A DNA stretch of 27,703 nt. Origin: Adineta ricciae. Lineage: Eukaryota. Under the pieces are notes generated by a model that ran no database searches, had not been told where the DNA came from, and worked only from the letters and a program-made list of their open reading frames with translations. This document shows positions 11,568 to 19,117 of the stretch, piece by piece. Each line of letters starts with the position of its first letter. The first letter of the stretch is position 1. A program made the position numbers and the translations under genes. The DNA is taken from contig CAJNOJ010000073.1 in NCBI GenBank assembly GCA_905250025.1, positions 110,175-137,877 of the forward strand, read 5' to 3'.

Positions 11568-13214
11568 ATGGATAAAGCAATGAATATGCAACAAAATACT
11601 AATGGCGTGACGCGTGGTTCCGATGCATTCGATGTCGTTATCGTTGGAAGTGGTTTCGCCGGCTTATTCATGTTGCACGAGTTACGTAAACGAGGGTATT
11701 CAACAAAAGTCTATGAAGCAGCTGATGAGATTGGAGGTACTTGGAATTTAAATCGATATCCTGGCGCACGATGTGACATTGAAAGTATGCAGTATTCCTA
11801 TTCGTTCAGTGATGAATTGCAACAAGATTGGCATTGGTCTGAACGTTTCGCTCGGCAACCAGAAATTCTTCGTTATCTTAATCATGTCGCTGATAAATTT
11901 GACTTAAACAAAGATATTCAACTTAATGCACGTGTGACTAGCATGGTCTATAATGAAAATCAATCAAAATGGACGATAACAACCGATCATAACAATCGTG
12001 TATCTGCTAAGTATTGTGTTATGGCAACGGGCTGTCTTTCAGTTGCTAGAGACCCTAAAATTGCGGGACTTGACCAATTTAAAGGTAATGTTTATAGAAC
12101 CACTAATTGGCCGAAAAACGACGTCAGTTTCATTGGTCGTCGAGTAGCTGTTATCGGTACAGGAGCATCAGGTGTACAGTGCATTCCAATGATTGCGAAA
12201 CAAGCTGCTCATCTGTACGTGATTCAACGAACACCAAATTTCGTGATTCCAACAGACACTAAACCTGTGGATGCTGAATACGAGAAAGATTGGAAGTCTA
12301 ATTACAATCAGCGTCGATCTCAAATGTTGCAGTCACCTGGTGGTATCTTCTACGATTACGACGATGACGCTTTGCGCGTAAACATGACTGACAGAGAACG
12401 ATTTGAGATCGCATGGCAAAGAGGAGGTCTTTCGTTTTTCACAGCATTCAAAGGTCGGTTGACTGATAATACTATCAAACAAACAATAACTTGTCTAATT
12501 CATGAAAAAATACGCGAAATCGTTAGAGATCCTGTACTTGCCGCTGCTTTATTACCGTACGACCATTTATTTGGTACGAAACGTCCTTGTGTTGCTGGTG
12601 AATATTATGATACATTTAATCTCAAAAATGTTACACTGGTCGATATCCGTCACACAACTATCGATAAAATTACAGCAAAAGGTATTCTAATCGACAATAA
12701 ACTCTACGAAATTGATGACCTTGTTCTCGCTACCGGGTTCGACGCAGTAATTGGATCTCTACTCAATATCGATATTCAAGGTCGGTCAAAACAAACACTT
12801 CGCGAGAAATGGTCAATCAGACCACGGACATTACTCGGCATCATGATTGCCGATTTTCCAAACCTGTTTACTATAACTGGACCCGGTAGTCCTATTAACT
12901 TGAGCAATATGATTCCTCATATTGAGGAAAACGTCAAATGGATAATTAAATGTATTGATTATCTGAACACGCATAATATTGATAGTATAGAAGCTAAAAT
13001 CGACGGGCAAAATGCCTGGATGGACCATGTCGATTTAGTTGCTAGCCAGCTGTCATATTCCGCAGACAGTTTTGCCGGCAATGACTCGAATATTTTAATC
13101 AAACCAAGTTCTTGCATGCGTTATGCTGGTGGTCTTCATAACTATTTGAACATGTGTGAAAAAGTGACTGCCAATGGTTATGAGAAATTTTTTTTGCTCA
13201 AACGATCTAAATGA
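11568..13214 (+). CDS. Type I Baeyer-Villiger (flavin-containing, NADPH-dependent) monooxygenase, cyclohexanone/phenylacetone-monooxygenase-like, intronless (548 aa).
   Basis: FAD Rossmann motif VIVGSGFAG. GGTWNLNRYPGARCDIES resembles the BVMO active-site region with the conserved Asp. The BVMO fingerprint reads FKGNVYRTTNWP, with Arg where the canonical FxGxxxHxxxWP has His. NADPH Rossmann motif VAVIGTGASGVQ. The C-terminal ...LATGFDAVIG... is typical of this family. Single uninterrupted ORF. Confidence 0.9.
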   Translation: MDKAMNMQQNTNGVTRGSDAFDVVIVGSGFAGLFMLHELRKRGYSTKVYEAADEIGGTWNLNRYPGARCDIESMQYSYSFSDELQQDWHWSERFARQPEILRYLNHVADKFDLNKDIQLNARVTSMVYNENQSKWTITTDHNNRVSAKYCVMATGCLSVARDPKIAGLDQFKGNVYRTTNWPKNDVSFIGRRVAVIGTGASGVQCIPMIAKQAAHLYVIQRTPNFVIPTDTKPVDAEYEKDWKSNYNQRRSQMLQSPGGIFYDYDDDALRVNMTDRERFEIAWQRGGLSFFTAFKGRLTDNTIKQTITCLIHEKIREIVRDPVLAAALLPYDHLFGTKRPCVAGEYYDTFNLKNVTLVDIRHTTIDKITAKGILIDNKLYEIDDLVLATGFDAVIGSLLNIDIQGRSKQTLREKWSIRPRTLLGIMIADFPNLFTITGPGSPINLSNMIPHIEENVKWIIKCIDYLNTHNIDSIEAKIDGQNAWMDHVDLVASQLSYSADSFAGNDSNILIKPSSCMRYAGGLHNYLNMCEKVTANGYEKFFLLKRSK

Positions 13215-15842: not shown

Positions 15843-17084
15843 TCATCGATATTTTTGTAATTTGACATTGTATTTATTCTTGAACTTATCAACAGCTGGT
15901 GCTTTGAGTAGATGACAGGCGCGACCAGAGTAAGTCATTCGTTTTTCGCGTTTGTTCTTCGCATTTTGAAGAGTGGTGCAGCATCCCATCAAACAGGTTT
16001 TCACTTTGTAACTCAAATGCTTCAGTTCAAGTGAGTATCCAGAAATATGCAATTCCATGATCGGCAAATCTTCAATAGAATTGGCGTTGATTGCCATTTT
16101 AGCCCAAAGGTGTAAATTCCCACACGAACGCAGCGGTTGTGCTTTCTTGAGCTTGGAGGGAAATTGGAGTATAGTTTGTGTTATGCATCGCTCGCATGTG
16201 GAAAGCATATATGGAGACCATGATGAAAGGTAATGGTAAATAGCATAGCAGTGGTTCTTATTCTGACGCCCTTTCGGTCTCAAAAAATGACGACCCAAAA
16301 AACGCGTGTAGAGTGGGAACACATTGGTTAGTACAGGCTTCGAAAGCCAACCTCTGTCAAGACTCATAACATAGTTGCATTGTCGTTCAAATACGTATTC
16401 ATATGTTAAACCAACGTTGACACAATCGTCCGTATCGTCCAATACTTCTAAACTTCGCCTATACGCAAGCAGCATAGCACGTTGATCGCGAGTGAAGATT
16501 TGTGGGCAGCAGTTCTCTATTATCACCAATGTGTGATAACGTAAACGTGGACCAAATACAGATACAAAATGCAGAATATCCACAAGTAGATCGAAAATAA
16601 TTTTGACCGTTTTGATATTGTCTATTTCATATCTTCCATTAGCAATAGCGACGATAAACTCTACAGCTGTATTTTGTACTTCGGGTGAACTAACGTATCG
16701 GCGTCTTTTTGAAAATAACTCTAAATCCTCTATATACATTCCTAATGTTGGTCTCAAGGAAGGAACTGGCATGGGATCAAAAGACATGTATTCATACAAT
16801 TGAAGGACGTCGAAGACGTCTACATATCGTGGTAACTTGGTGAAGAGATGCGATGAACTTCTACTGTGCACAGCAGATAAAATAGGTTTTAGCGACGAAT
16901 ATTGTATTAAATCATCCAGAATAAATGCATTATCTTGATTTCGACGCCAAGAAAATCGCTGTGCATTTTCCACCATTGCATTTAAATAGGGAACGCATTT
17001 GAGCTGATCTTCATTGAGCGCGATAACGTGATCTGATTGTGTAAAATAAAATTTGTGCAGAACTACTTCTAGAGTTTCTGACAT
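15843..17084 (-). CDS. Hypothetical 413-aa protein with no confident domain assignment; possible BTB/T1-like N-terminus.
   Basis: Uninterrupted minus-strand ORF. An in-frame TTG at 17138 follows a stop directly, and the first ATG is at 17084 (MSETLEVVLHKFYFTQSDHVIALNEDQLKCVPYLNAMVEN...). Long helical middle section and a Cys-rich C-terminus (CGNLHLWAK...CLMGCCTTLQ...RACHLL). Starts only about 95 nt downstream of the MVP stop on the same strand. Confidence 0.6.
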   Translation of the reverse strand: MSETLEVVLHKFYFTQSDHVIALNEDQLKCVPYLNAMVENAQRFSWRRNQDNAFILDDLIQYSSLKPILSAVHSRSSSHLFTKLPRYVDVFDVLQLYEYMSFDPMPVPSLRPTLGMYIEDLELFSKRRRYVSSPEVQNTAVEFIVAIANGRYEIDNIKTVKIIFDLLVDILHFVSVFGPRLRYHTLVIIENCCPQIFTRDQRAMLLAYRRSLEVLDDTDDCVNVGLTYEYVFERQCNYVMSLDRGWLSKPVLTNVFPLYTRFLGRHFLRPKGRQNKNHCYAIYHYLSSWSPYMLSTCERCITQTILQFPSKLKKAQPLRSCGNLHLWAKMAINANSIEDLPIMELHISGYSLELKHLSYKVKTCLMGCCTTLQNAKNKREKRMTYSGRACHLLKAPAVDKFKNKYNVKLQKYR

Positions 17085-17172
17085 CACACATGCATGTACG
17101 TTCGCGACGAGCAAGGAATGAATGAATGAAACTTCCAACTATACACATGATTCAATGTAAGCAAATAAATAT

Positions 17173-17180: not shown

Positions 17181-19117
17181 TCAAAATCGAAAGAAACGAC
17201 GAAAAATCAACCAGCCAACAACTAAAATCACACCGCCAAAGAAAACCGGTTTGTTTCTTGTTAGCTTCTGACACCAAAAAAGCACAGACAAGGATGCAAT
17301 GTAAAGCAAAGAAACAATCGCCGATCCTGTCAGGTTAATACAGGTGAATTGTTCATCAGGACCTAACATGACTAAATCCGGTCCAAAAACAATTCTCGAT
17401 TCTTTAATTTTATAGTCATAAATCTGCACAACGTCATTCTGCGGCACACAGTACGTAACTACTTTCCATCGATCGCGTTTTGTTGTTTTCTTATCTGCAT
17501 CTTTTGAACTGAGATATCGATTCATTAATGATTCTTTCTCCAGAAAAGATTCGATTCTTGCAGGTAACTCTTTTTCCCATAATTCTTCGTGTTCGGTTAG
17601 TATATAAGTTTTGCCGATGACAGCTCGAGCACGACCTGTTTTCGTGTCACGCACATAGATACCTTCATTCTCGTCTAGGGAGAGAGAGAGAGAGAGAGAG
17701 AGAGCAACGAAGATTATACGTGCTGATTTGAAGAAAAGTCACTTACCTAGTGCGATCGCTTTTCTTCGTAGTAATACTTCGACTTGAGTAGGAGGAATGT
17801 ATTCTCTCGGTCCTCGAAGAAGCCATCGATCACCTTTGATATTAGAATGGTATAGTCGATCGCTCAGAACAAAGATTTACCTGCTATTCGCGATACTTTG
17901 TCAATACCATCTTCAAAGGGCTCGGTACATCTGAGAATCAGACCCTCGTCTTCTTCCAAGATATAAATATCTTGAATTCCTTTCTCCAGTCGTTCATCCG
18001 GTTGAAGAAAAAACGACTTTTCGCCGACAACTAATTTCTTTTTTCCCAACTGATTCTTTCCATCAGCTGTAAAAAAATGAAACCTGAATTGAAACCTCCT
18101 TTCTTATCAAAGACAATTTTACCTCCAACTGGATTTAAAATAACACAATACTGTCTCGAGTTCAAGACGACGATGTCCACAGTTTTAATTAGTTCTTCGT
18201 AAACATTTAATATGTGTGCTTCTGTTTGTTCACATGTTATCAGCCATTCATCGCCGTTATTTCGGGTTTGATTAAAATCATCTGTAAATGTTTTCAGAGC
18301 ACGCAAATGCAAAGCCTTTTTGTTTGTTAACACATGAGCATTTTCGACGTTGACAACTGTTTCGTATGCCAGCGGTAAATACGCACCCGGTTTCTTCACT
18401 AACCAATTCTCACCGGTCACGCGTCGTTGGCCAAGACGATCGACCAATTCTTTTTTTGCACACAGTTTTATGGCTTGATTCGGACCAATAATCGTCGCGC
18501 CGATGCGTTCTTCAATCGTCACTTCTTTCCGTGGTATATAGGTACCTAAATAAGCCAAGAGTATTTCCATCGTCACAAACTTTCTTATAGATCATTTACC
18601 TGGTCCTTCAAATAACCATTCGTCGCCAGCTTTCCGTACTTCGCCATGGTCATCGAAGTCGAGAATTGCTTTCAACCGTACTGCCGAGTTCGCTGCTACG
18701 TATTTCAACTCAGTCGCCGGCTGAAACAGATTCATCAAGAATATATGTATAACTAAAGTCGTATTATACTTGTTTTAAAATTTCACCAGGATACAAAGGA
18801 AATGGTTCCTGATAATCTTCATGCAATCGAATGGCGACATCCCCATGCGACAATTTCACTTGTCCGTTTTTGTCCAATTCAATTTGACCCGTTTGATTTT
18901 TAATAACAGGATTTTCTATGATACAGTAATGTCTCGGTGGTATTGTAATCATTTTTTCTGGCCCCATAGTAAGTGTTTCATTATCCTGTTTGAAAAATAT
19001 TTTCGGGCCGATTTCCAATCGTGTCACACTTGTATTTTGATCTAATACATGAATGTAGTAGTACGGAGGAATACGATAGAGAGGACCATTCTGTAATGAA
19101 ACACTTTTCGACGACAT
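17181..19117 (-). CDS. MVP: Major vault protein (MVP) homolog of about 552 aa (6 exons) that keeps the N-terminal MVP repeat domains but ends in a two-segment hydrophobic hairpin instead of the shoulder and cap-helix domains.
   Basis: Exons in minus-strand 5' to 3' order: 19117-18770, 18720-18600, 18545-18123, 18066-17881, 17833-17747 and 17674-17181. Introns are 49, 54, 56, 47 and 72 nt. Collinear with human MVP residues 1 to about 515: [26 protein letters not shown] vs [26 protein letters not shown]; [19 protein letters not shown]; RVTGENWLV; [32 protein letters not shown]; [20 protein letters not shown]; [38 protein letters not shown]; [30 protein letters not shown]. The last 46 aa, [46 protein letters not shown], have no MVP counterpart. 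They are followed by a stop and AATAAA. Confidence 0.85.
17681..17704. repeat. (GA)12 microsatellite, read as (CT)12 on the coding strand of the MVP gene.
   Basis: Perfect AG dinucleotide run. It lies inside MVP intron 5, where it forms the polypyrimidine tract before the CCCTAG acceptor. Confidence 0.9.

Follow-up and report, generated by a model that had tools for sequence, protein, structure and literature searches.

What kind of protein results when the major vault protein (MVP) keeps the repeat wall of the vault and ends before the parts that close it? Vaults are the largest ribonucleoprotein particles of eukaryotic cells, and their function has been unclear since their discovery. The MVP of the vault shell assembles into 39-mer half-vaults and 78-mer particles, and, to our knowledge, natural variation in MVP architecture has so far been described solely as full-length paralogs. 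The locus analysed here, in a window of 27,703 nucleotides of the bdelloid Adineta ricciae, raises this question because an earlier note, made from the sequence alone, had read it as an MVP homolog whose repeat domains run directly into a hydrophobic two-helix hairpin. Our analysis indicates that the gene is likely to encode a functional, bdelloid-specific MVP paralog in which the cap half has been replaced by a hydrophobic tail of about 46 residues.

The gene lies on the minus strand of the window (19117-17181) and, in agreement with the six-exon MVP homolog first described, comprises six exons that encode a 552-aa product in an intact ORF (Table 1). Its five introns, of 49, 54, 56, 47 and 72 nt, are all of the GT-AG type. 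The protein terminates 46 residues past the junction at which similarity to MVP ends, and the succession that had been claimed, a 46-aa tail, a stop codon and then AATAAA, is found in the sequence exactly as described. Conservation and the poly(A) signal would place the 3' end of the A. ricciae gene at the stop codon of the tail. The next ORF, which had been called unrelated, is a separate gene that is annotated apart (P0123) in the second A. ricciae copy.

Table 1. Positions of the MVP-like gene, its tail and its downstream neighbour in the A. ricciae window.
Feature	Position	Strand	Remarks
Exon 1	18770..19117	-	ATG at 19117; R1-R2 including waist-contact residues; donor GTATAA
Exon 2	18600..18720	-	Acceptor ...TTTCAG, donor GTAAAT; collinear with MVP
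Exon 3	18123..18545	-	tblastn with human MVP and ORF reconstruction
Exon 4	17881..18066	-	tblastn with human MVP and ORF reconstruction
Exon 5	17747..17833	-	tblastn with human MVP and ORF reconstruction
Exon 6	17181..17674	-	R8, truncated R9, hydrophobic tail, TGA stop (17183-17181)
Tail helix 1, residues 507-523	17271..17321	-	KD mean 2.17, <H> 0.73, muH 0.10; helical in both AF2 models
Basic loop, residues 524-530 (QKLTRNK)	17250..17270	-	Charge +3 to +4 in all species; invariant Lys
Tail helix 2, residues 531-546	17202..17249	-	KD mean 2.38, <H> 0.95, muH 0.06; invariant FF at start; helical in both AF2 models
C-terminal basic end, residues 547-552 (RRFFRF)	17184..17201	-	Invariant RR
Poly(A) signal AATAAA	17173..17178	-	Directly 3' of the tail's stop codon
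Separate downstream gene	15843..17084	-	Own ATG at 17084; no Pfam match

As the canonical reference we used the rat (4V60/4HL8) and human vault structures and the families PF01505, PF17794-6 and PF11978. Residues 13-505 of the query align to MVP 7-502, by tblastn with human MVP and by phmmer against the PDB vault chains, the latter with E = 1e-178 to 1e-181 against rat 4hl8/4v60 and the 893-aa 11dr chain. From R1 to mid-R9, identity is about 50% to mammals and 64-68% to bdelloid full-length MVPs. The families of the vault repeats R1-R9 (PF01505, PF17794, PF17796 and PF17795) are all matched (Vault 4.4e-64, Vault_2 4.8e-32, Vault_4 1.9e-14, Vault_3 4.1e-25), although Vault_3, which represents R9, is matched at model positions 1-46 of 62 only, with the last 16 positions missing. 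Since this match is limited and the alignments end at MVP 502, homology must stop at about MVP 502/503, inside R9, which corresponds to G505/S506 of the query. Thus, of the claim that the protein follows MVP through complete repeats R1-R9 to about residue 515, the collinearity stands, while the end point has to be moved back into a truncated R9. Using the list of interface residues in PMC13347060, we found that the waist residues N22, Q38, N40 and D39 and the lateral residues R9 and Q21 (human numbering) are largely retained, and that I36, in the hydrophobic patch of the waist, has changed to F or L specifically in the short-form clade. This retention may, nevertheless, reflect constraints of the fold instead of assembly.

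Nothing of the remaining canonical protein could be recovered nearby. The shoulder family PF11978 (SPFH-like) is absent by Pfam from the protein and from all short-form homologs, and the protein likewise has no Band_7 or MVP_shoulder match. With human MVP, tblastn detected no coding sequence for the shoulder, cap-helix or cap-ring in the whole 27.7-kb window, and the C-terminal 364-370 aa of the full-length bdelloid proteins P0021 and P0007 gave noise only against it (E 3.2 and 8.3). The proposal that these three parts are missing and that no downstream exon supplies them is therefore borne out in the window with human and bdelloid queries alike. Among the missing parts, the cap-helix coiled coil provides the majority of the lateral contacts, and particles cannot form without it (PMC13347060, PMC3762200).

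What stands in their place is a tail, residues 507-552, of two hydrophobic, non-amphipathic helices (16-17 aa) with a basic loop between them and a basic C-terminal end. Kyte-Doolittle means over 17 residues exceed 1.6 in the tail only, in windows starting at 498-508 and 529-534, with a maximum of 1.28 elsewhere. The tail helices show <H> of 0.73-0.97 and muH of 0.06-0.21, and the best 15-17-aa tail windows sum on the Hessa scale to about -0.7 to -4.5 kcal/mol, where the corresponding canonical sequence gives +6. Both AF2 runs folded the tail as helix-loop-helix, with a low tail pLDDT of about 50. One of them used an alignment of short forms only; its overall pLDDT of 33 makes it unusable as a model, so that it served only as a check of the tail, and because it gave the same fold, this fold is no artefact of misaligned canonical sequences in the deep alignment. 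The two hydrophobic helices that had been read from the letters are therefore confirmed by the hydropathy windows and by both predictions. The further description of this hairpin as "reticulon-like" is not, because the segments span 15-17 aa instead of 30-35 aa and Pfam gives no reticulon match. The protein has no N-terminal signal or other transmembrane segment and its second helix ends six residues from the C-terminus, as in a tail-anchored protein; all ten copies or lineages, however, carry two hydrophobic segments with a basic loop of 7-8 aa rather than a single one. Judging from these properties, the tail is probably a membrane anchor. Because the segments are short and both the loop and the C-terminus are basic, the sequence does not choose among the possible topologies, which would include a true hairpin, a monotopic wedge and association with a monolayer or lipid droplet.

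Is such a tail more than an accident of one genome? Beyond this gene, genomic DNA read through in frame yields the tail in nine other copies or lineages: A. vaga, A. steineri, a second copy in A. ricciae, five Rotaria species (R. socialis, R. magnacalcarata, R. sordida, and Rotaria sp. Silwood1 and Silwood2) and one environmental contig. Six aligned tails share invariant Ser, Leu, Lys, FF and RR residues, the codon-level alignment of four species contains zero indels, and the stop position varies within two codons, with a poly(A) signal 0-40 nt past the stop in all five loci examined. Between A. ricciae and A. vaga, dN/dS is 0.21 in the tail and 0.18 in the adjacent R8-R9 region, and the stretch at the basic loop differs by eight synonymous and zero nonsynonymous changes. 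Over the species pairs, the tail values range from 0.21 to 0.59 (computable for five of the six pairs) and those of R8-R9 from 0.10 to 0.47, with dS near saturation. These coding-sequence comparisons show that purifying selection acts on the tail as read in its own frame.

In the phylogeny, the short forms are monophyletic in 199 of 200 bootstraps and sister to the full-length MVPs of D. carnosus (Didymodactylos) in all 200, while canonical MVPs of about 890 aa, which coexist with the short forms, make up a separate bdelloid clade. As far as alignment and tree can tell, the short-form clade is older than the Adineta/Rotaria split and has been kept under selection since. Its R1-R9 region has evolved about 2.4 times faster than in canonical MVPs, so the constraint on it has been relaxed or changed. 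A repeat-only MVP with a hydrophobic tail is an architecture undescribed before, and the suggestion of a real, new architecture is strengthened by the occurrence of the tail in nine further copies or lineages, the purifying selection, the old monophyletic paralog clade and the stress-induced transcription of the A. vaga ortholog. A scan of metagenomes with a 70-aa tail alignment (A1) found no short-form tail in 79 loci (from the best 80 of 314 matches); all of these were canonical MVPs, continuing '...PKKP...LLLGP.F..D...ETADHARL'. A profile search of a set of 5.8 billion proteins with the same alignment, a short hydrophobic query that was probably filtered, returned one irrelevant fragment.

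In most bdelloid genomes the public gene models of the short-form loci are incorrect or disagree: some are fused to neighbours, some contain spurious in-frame introns, and one is frameshifted. The A. steineri model P0004 has a single helix only through faulty annotation, its excision removing 16 conserved codons, and a 48-nt in-frame mini-intron inside the tail (GTTTCT...TGTCAG), noticed by eye, was discarded because every species conserves the segment as protein. In the A. vaga reference, one extra base (ATCcGGA, at about 7812-7822 of the locus L001) puts the tail in the +1 frame, so that the annotated protein P0003 lacks it; either a mistake in the assembly or a genuine recent lesion could account for the extra base. 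We also looked for the origin of the tail. Intron retention is unsupported in bdelloids, given that canonical A. steineri, full-length D. carnosus and Lingula have no intron at the junction. Six non-bdelloid models (P0048, P0049, P0050, P0119, P0162 and P0164) stop or turn hydrophobic at the same junction, among them P0049, an ORF call that runs into an intron of an unrelated AT-rich eukaryote. Nor did a frameshift of canonical downstream sequence give a consistent signal when three tails were locally aligned to the 1.5 kb downstream in L006 and L007, translated in all three frames; z never exceeded 2.5, and no signal recurred from one tail to another.

The short form is strongly expressed in A. 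vaga, where FUN_013870, an MVP with the repeat Pfams and without PF11978, is taken as its ortholog, a link to L001 based on synteny and domain content and not on sequence identity. Its neighbour FUN_013871 is a PF00685 sulfotransferase, and the same synteny is seen in L001 and in the A. ricciae window (24950-25819). FUN_013870 has a mean expression of 1501 and is induced about 15-fold (log2FC 3.94, FDR 4e-75) 2.5 h after desiccation and X-rays, being the only MVP-family gene in the shared desiccation-and-radiation response of A. vaga. The same dataset shows radiation induction of canonical MVPs as well as of PARP4-like genes that encode VIT and vWA domains. Public RNA-seq reads are available for A. 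vaga (PMC10809525). Look-ups of cluster members returned no transcript-derived (Logan) members for the short forms. The expression papers list the short-form gene merely as 'MVP'.

Two readings would deny the tail a place in a functional protein. In one, the real A. ricciae product is a fusion in which the tail is intronic and MVP residues 1-499 are joined to the downstream 400-aa ORF (17342 to 17032). Two automatic gene models, P0002 and P0122, make this join, and a GT at 17341 and an AG ahead of 17032 are indeed present. The donor GT, however, arises from a TGT codon unique to A. ricciae (TAT in A. vaga and R. socialis, CAT in A. steineri), the implied intron would measure 309 nt where the real introns of the gene measure 47-72 nt, and the supposed intron is conserved as protein across species, with dN/dS below 1 and zero indels. 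Moreover, AATAAA directly follows the stop codon of the tail, P0001 (552 aa) and P0123 (411 aa) are separate gene models in the second A. ricciae copy, and in A. steineri the next annotated downstream gene lies on the opposite strand. We therefore regard the fusion as very improbable. The P0002 splice, into an unrelated ORF, is also the only one proposed from before 17321, and so the splicing to shoulder and cap exons that could have undone the earlier note was not encountered. The other reading, a decaying truncated duplicate whose tail is read-through of formerly non-coding AT-rich sequence and hydrophobic by chance, is scarcely credible. It is true that AT-rich non-coding DNA often translates to F, I, L and K, that the intron read in P0049 (L087) yields a hydrophobic 'tail' at the same junction, that the A. 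vaga reference carries a frameshift ahead of the tail, and that the short clade evolves faster than canonical MVP. Yet the ORFs are intact in all lineages, the dN/dS values given above hold at near-saturated dS, tail length and stop position are conserved together with the invariant FF, K and RR, the clade predates the Adineta/Rotaria split, and transcription is strong and regulated. Even the shifted A. vaga tail frame is open and differs from that of A. ricciae almost only at synonymous sites. Tail conservation, dN/dS and expression thus exclude a pseudogene or frameshifted remnant.

We favour, instead, a membrane-anchored paralog. An old MVP duplicate would have lost the last part of R9 together with the shoulder (SPFH-like), the coiled coil of the cap-helix and the cap-ring, and gained in exchange about 46 residues: two uniformly hydrophobic helices, each 15-17 aa long, a short loop rich in Lys and Arg, and a dibasic C-terminus. 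Since there is no signal peptide and both segments lie in the last 46 residues, exposed only at termination, insertion would be post-translational, as for tail-anchored and hairpin-anchored proteins. In every topology the R1-R9 rod would be cytosolic, with its C-terminal end on the membrane and R1 pointing away from it. With such short segments and basic flanks, the plasma membrane would be a poorer fit than either a wedge that does not span the bilayer or the thin membrane of an organelle (ER, mitochondrial outer membrane or peroxisome). Lacking the cap-helix bundle, the protein could presumably not build a closed vault alone. Concentrated in two dimensions on a membrane, it might still make MVP-type contacts, for which the waist and lateral residues of R1-R9 are kept, with itself, with canonical half-vaults or with vault partners, and may act during recovery from desiccation and radiation.

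Two further proposals concern what the tail or the protein does. The tail might be no bilayer anchor, serving either for self-association in place of the cap-helix bundle, where many hairpins would cluster in a hydrophobic core and close a small cap-less particle, or as a wedge in one leaflet or a lipid-droplet monolayer. The segments are only 15-17 aa long, the positive-inside rule speaks against moving a basic loop across a membrane when the C-terminus is basic too, and with the lateral and waist contact residues retained a ring-like assembly is conceivable. We nonetheless find this quite unlikely, as the helices are uniformly hydrophobic (muH 0.06-0.21), unlike the amphipathic Ala/Leu cap-helix coiled coil (PMC13347060), and in cells such sequences partition into lipid; besides, the lipid-droplet or monotopic form would still be membrane or lipid anchoring and is thus a variant of the favoured explanation rather than a true rival. 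Somewhat less doubtful, although still unlikely, is a decoy or regulator of canonical vault assembly, soluble or membrane-bound, that caps the half-vault waist or sequesters partners such as PARP4-like proteins or TEP1. The retained R1 waist residues with their clade-specific I36 change, as well as the radiation induction of canonical MVPs and PARP4-like (VIT, vWA) genes in the same A. vaga dataset, are in keeping with it, but a pure decoy would not need a conserved hydrophobic tail. As this proposal concerns the downstream role and not the architecture, it is compatible with membrane anchoring.

It is tempting to speculate, at rather long odds, that the membrane-anchored short MVP forms an embedded palisade or ring, as if the barrel wall of a half-vault had been set upright on the membrane of an organelle, its R1 waist edge turned to the cytosol. 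Such a structure could be a docking site for canonical half-vaults, for another short-MVP ring on an apposed membrane, or for vault partners, among them the co-induced PARP4-like proteins, and so provide an openable, membrane-docked vault compartment for desiccation and radiation recovery. If true, this would give vaults a concrete, testable membrane-linked role in an extremotolerant animal. More generally, the short MVP is an evolutionary experiment in which the repeat wall (R1-R9) has been separated from the assembly and closure module and joined to a hydrophobic, probably membrane-embedded tail. It offers a way to learn what R1-R9 do alone, for example in binding partners or docking at the waist; it is also a candidate effector in the extremotolerance of bdelloids and a natural design for the engineering of membrane-tethered vaults.

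Compared with canonical MVP, the short form is collinear from R1 to mid-R9, matches the same repeat Pfam families, largely keeps the contact residues and is induced by radiation, as is MVP in other systems; it differs in ending before the last part of R9, the shoulder, the cap-helix and the cap-ring, with a 46-aa helix-loop-helix instead. Tail-anchored and hairpin-anchored proteins are a functional class and not a homologous family. With them the short MVP shares a large, predicted cytosolic N-terminal domain without a signal peptide, hydrophobic sequence confined to the last 46 residues, and basic flanks, whereas classical tail-anchored proteins have one transmembrane domain and not two segments, and typical transmembrane domains are longer than 15-17 aa. 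Reticulon and caveolin hairpins also combine two hydrophobic stretches with a short loop and are expected to leave both ends in the cytosol, but those of reticulons consist of two segments of about 30-35 aa, and there is no Pfam similarity. The SPFH proteins (stomatin, prohibitin, flotillin, HflK/C) are evolutionarily linked to vaults via the MVP shoulder domain (PMC13347060; PMC12624060). What these proteins share with MVP, the shoulder and the coiled coil, is exactly what the short MVP has lost; its predicted anchor is C-terminal and theirs N-terminal, and its R1-R9 repeats have no SPFH counterpart. SPFH proteins, however, build large membrane-anchored rings and cages, and a vault-like wall attached to a membrane would be conceptually close to them.

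The short major vault protein (MVP) of the bdelloid rotifer Adineta ricciae is a conserved, selected and transcribed protein that runs from R1 to the middle of R9 and ends in a hydrophobic helix-loop-helix. Its gene lies on the minus strand (19117-17181), with six exons, five GT-AG introns (49, 54, 56, 47 and 72 nt) and an intact 552-aa ORF; the coordinates, exon count and tail sequence quoted in the earlier note are exact. A. ricciae proteins are the top database matches to the window (97-100% identity). Residues 13-505 are collinear with rat and human MVP 7-502 without rearrangement, PDB vault chains match with E values of 1e-178 to 1e-181, and human MVP aligns to the window by tblastn with per-block identities of 46-64%. 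All four vault-repeat Pfam families are present, the R9 model (Vault_3) aligning over positions 1-46 of 62 only; homology thus ends at about MVP residue 502, inside R9, rather than at about residue 515 with R9 complete, as had been claimed. The protein has no Pfam match to the shoulder family PF11978. One vault repeat (residues 136-176) shows a sub-threshold Pfam match (E 0.003, 18 bits) to the C-terminal, partner-binding OB-fold domain of NfeD proteins, whose partners within prokaryotic operons are SPFH/stomatin proteins; the match could be fortuitous or a trace of remote structural resemblance.

The 27.7-kb window contains no sequence coding for a shoulder, cap-helix or cap-ring, and it gives the hidden-exon search 17 kb downstream of the short MVP, compared with introns of ~50 nt within it. 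Human MVP gave no tblastn match to shoulder or cap in the window up to E 10, and the C-terminal 364-370 residues of the full-length bdelloid MVPs P0021 and P0007 gave only noise (E 3.2 and 8.3), which upholds the earlier claim that such exons are missing downstream. The adjoining ORF (15843-17138) has no Pfam match and is, as was also claimed, unrelated. The public model at this locus (P0002, 895 aa) splices into it from 17342 to 17032, making the product an MVP fusion; this is the only splice proposed from before 17321, and it enters an unrelated ORF, not the shoulder and cap exons that the earlier note had considered. As the main product the fusion lacks credibility, because its GT donor is a TGT codon in A. 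ricciae only (TAT in A. vaga and R. socialis, CAT in A. steineri), it needs a 309-nt intron, that 'intron' is conserved across species at the protein level, the downstream gene starts from its own ATG at 17084, and the second A. ricciae copy has the same two genes annotated apart (P0001, 552 aa; P0123, 411 aa). We favor instead a tail-bearing short MVP followed by a separate gene. Two public A. ricciae models, P0002 and P0122, wrongly join this downstream gene to MVP, and its remnants are visible at the A. vaga locus L001 (~8100-8230, '...LQLYEYM...').

Features of the short MVP locus in the window, and short-form tails read from bdelloid genomic DNA
Feature	Position	Strand	Tail	Remark
Exon 1	19117-18770	minus		short MVP
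Exon 2	18720-18600	minus		short MVP
Exon 3	18545-18123	minus		short MVP
Exon 4	18066-17881	minus		short MVP
Exon 5	17833-17747	minus		short MVP
Exon 6	17674-17181	minus		short MVP
TGA stop	17183-17181	minus		short MVP
AATAAA poly(A) signal	17178-17173	minus		after the TGA stop
Downstream gene	15843-17084	minus		~413 aa, intronless, directly 3' of short MVP
Sulfotransfer_1 gene	24950-25819	minus		PF00685, E 1e-51; intronless, 289 aa; upstream of short MVP
A. ricciae copy 2			48 aa	genomic read-through
A. vaga			47 aa	genomic read-through
A. steineri			GSMVYSVFLLGYLSLVFFCKKFAHSKKIFFCSIFLLVLYFFFRRYLQ	genomic read-through
R. socialis			GSLIVSLLSLVFLSILLVLRRFVTNKRIFFPSIFALILCFFLRRYI	genomic read-through
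R. magnacalcarata			as R. socialis with three substitutions	genomic read-through
Rotaria sp. Silwood2			GSVIASLFLLVFLSLLFVLKRAISNKIIFFSSIFAFVLYFGLRRFI	genomic read-through
Rotaria sp. Silwood1			GSVHVSLFLLTFLSLVFVLKKAVSNKKIFFSAILVFVLSLILRRFI	genomic read-through
R. sordida			GSVCVSLFLLIFLSLLFILKKGTSNKKNFFLSVFVFIFCISLRRFIQYTK	genomic read-through
Environmental contig L089			GSIGIALLLLVFLSLFFFYKKFTSNKKVLFFSVFVLLCWFCLRRFLQ	genomic read-through

When genomic DNA is translated straight across the junction, every bdelloid short-form locus examined encodes the same tail design. Across six aligned tails, helix 1 has an invariant Ser and an invariant Leu, the loop has an invariant Lys, and neither the FF that opens helix 2 nor the final RR varies. 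In all five loci checked, the tail stop is followed within 0-40 nt by a poly(A) signal. In the tail frame, the Nei-Gojobori dN/dS between A. ricciae and A. vaga is 0.21 (dS 0.95), much like the 0.18 of the adjacent R8-R9. Four further species pairs gave ratios of 0.28-0.59 at near-saturated dS; for A. vaga versus A. steineri, dS was not computable. In bdelloid short forms, selection maintains a conserved tail; its retention across species with such ratios, without a single indel in a four-species codon alignment and with the stop held within two codons, contradicts the alternative of a pseudogenised remnant.

The differing C-termini of public short-MVP models are annotation artefacts. The R. 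sordida (L091) and Silwood1 (L090) models fuse the short MVP to a neighboring secreted Cys-rich protein, Silwood1 models carry assorted splices, the A. steineri model (L004/L005) has a spurious 48-nt in-frame intron (16 codons), deleting the loop and the greater part of helix 2, and some models among these loci splice from 'HFTY' to one or another exon further downstream; at each of these loci, reading through the genomic DNA yields the complete tail. In the chromosome-level assembly of A. vaga, a single extra base (ATCcGGA, L001 ~7812-7822, CP075492.1) places the tail in the +1 frame, so the deposited protein P0003 (UJR11408.1) closes with 29 unrelated residues. Since the shifted frame is open, and a 14-codon tail stretch has 8 synonymous and 0 nonsynonymous differences from A. 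ricciae, the shift reflects either a very recent real lesion or an error in the assembly.

After G505-S506, the tail consists of a 17-aa segment, QKLTRNK, a 16-aa segment and RRFFRF. KD17 exceeds 1.6 only in windows starting at 498-508 and 529-534 (maximum elsewhere 1.28), and both segments have <H> of 0.73-0.97 and hydrophobic moments of 0.06-0.21 in four species. By composition, the tail helices look like lipid-embedded rather than amphipathic or coiled-coil helices. A simple Hessa-scale sum over the best 15-17-aa tail windows is favorable (about -0.7 to -4.5 kcal/mol), compared with +6 for canonical sequence at the same position. Both AlphaFold2 runs predicted, at low confidence, a helix-loop-helix (~507/509-527/529 and 534-549/551); the deep-alignment run had a mean pLDDT of 68.5 (80-94 in R2-R8), while the run on short forms only had an overall pLDDT of 33 and is unusable as a whole model.

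In a neighbor-joining tree (488 shared columns, 200 bootstraps), the eleven short forms cluster in 199/200 replicates, with the two full-length MVPs of Didymodactylos carnosus as their sister group in 200/200. A bdelloid clade of its own holds the canonical MVPs (~890 aa) from Adineta and Rotaria, so the MVP duplication is old. Truncation and tail gain appear to postdate the Didymodactylos split and predate the Adineta/Rotaria divergence, and Didymodactylos may likewise have a short form. Although R1-R9 evolve ~2.4 times faster in the short clade (70-76% versus 87-91% identity for canonical MVPs, same species pairs), purifying selection clearly acts on it. Searched exhaustively with HMMER, a set of 1.84 billion representative proteins yielded 2337 that are MVP-like; of the top 150, only the environmental bdelloid-like fragment P0260 bears the tail, and the other 'short' entries end at an intron after '...LSG'. 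In metagenomes, all 79 MVP loci among the best 80 of 314 are canonical and none has the tail. The architecture appears confined to bdelloids. Regarding tail origin, simple intron retention is unsupported, since the junction is free of introns in canonical bdelloid genes and in those of Didymodactylos and Lingula; comparison of the tail with every reading frame of canonical downstream sequence gave no similarity that could be reproduced.

In A. vaga, FUN_013870 is the one MVP gene in the shared desiccation-and-radiation response class. It has all four repeat Pfams and no shoulder domain, and its BLAST E value (about 1e-167) is consistent with a match of ~500 aa; the full-length FUN_011957 and FUN_011958 have values of 1e-274 to 1e-288. 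It adjoins FUN_013871, a PF00685 sulfotransferase that desiccation plus radiation also induces (log2FC 1.6). Because the same pairing occurs at L001, where a 289-aa Sulfotransfer_1 gene (4881-5750) lies immediately upstream of the short MVP, and in the window, FUN_013870 and the window gene are orthologs, or at the least syntenic co-orthologs. At 2.5 h after desiccation plus X-rays, it has a mean expression of 1501 and a log2 fold change of 3.94 (FDR 4e-75); the MVP of the shared class exceeds 150 TPM (PMC10809525). The four other induced A. vaga MVP genes are radiation-only. Induction extends to PARP4-like genes carrying VIT and vWA domains. Beside MVP genes in Table S8 of PMC10809525, PARP4-like genes (VIT, vWA, PARP catalytic) reach log2FC 4.5 after irradiation, oddly co-annotated with Hsp70 and mitochondrial-carrier domains. 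The best matches of FUN_013871 are cyanobacterial and other bacterial, which suggests a possible horizontal origin.

Between the short MVP and the sulfotransferase, the window holds a multi-exon gene (~21200-24720, plus strand), missing from the equivalent 250-bp A. vaga interval, whose ORFs by eye resemble soluble guanylate cyclase (H-NOX-like start MLYGLLLES...YGHETW, then a coiled-coil segment). Also on the plus strand, a single 397-aa ORF (5293-6486) unusually pairs WWE with an NAD:arginine ADP-ribosyltransferase domain (ART / ADPrib_exo_Tox), a poly-ADP-ribose reader with a toxin-type mono-ART, and an oxidoreductase cluster (3836-5101, 9841-10584, 11568-13214) comprises a two-exon short-chain dehydrogenase, an NmrA/NAD_binding_10 protein and an intronless 548-aa FMO-like flavin monooxygenase.

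We infer from sequence that the tail probably anchors the short MVP in membranes, and that the protein may have some role in assembly. Because the protein lacks a signal peptide and its hydrophobic stretches are confined to the last 46 residues, general biogenesis principles suggest that the tail would engage the membrane only after translation ends, as in tail-anchored or hairpin-anchored proteins. In every topology the repeat rod would be cytosolic, tethered at its R9 end with R1 distal, and the short segments with basic flanks would suit a thin organelle membrane, or a wedge that does not span the membrane. The cap-helix bundle supplies the largest share of lateral contacts in the human vault (144/276 contacting residues; PMC13347060) and is regarded as essential to particle formation (PMC3762200); since it is absent, the short form cannot build a closed vault alone. 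It still has the polar triad of the waist, D39, R9:Q21 and most of the lateral contact residues in R5-R9, all in the state seen in canonical bdelloid MVPs; a single change specific to the short clade, I36 to F/L, falls in the hydrophobic patch of the waist. Such retention is compatible with, though no proof of, self-association on membranes, half-vault docking or partner recruitment.

The new architecture proposed in the earlier note holds. Full-text searches gave no description of a natural membrane-tailed or cap-less MVP, and the sole bdelloid paper found to mention MVPs (PMC10809525) handles them as ordinary ones. This is an unexpected, old, selected and stress-regulated MVP architecture in an extremotolerant animal, and it lets repeat-wall function be separated experimentally. 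The short form is an unmistakable MVP homolog: it shares the repeats of the canonical vault-shell MVP, but lacks the defining features of a shell subunit and adds a newly gained C-terminal module.
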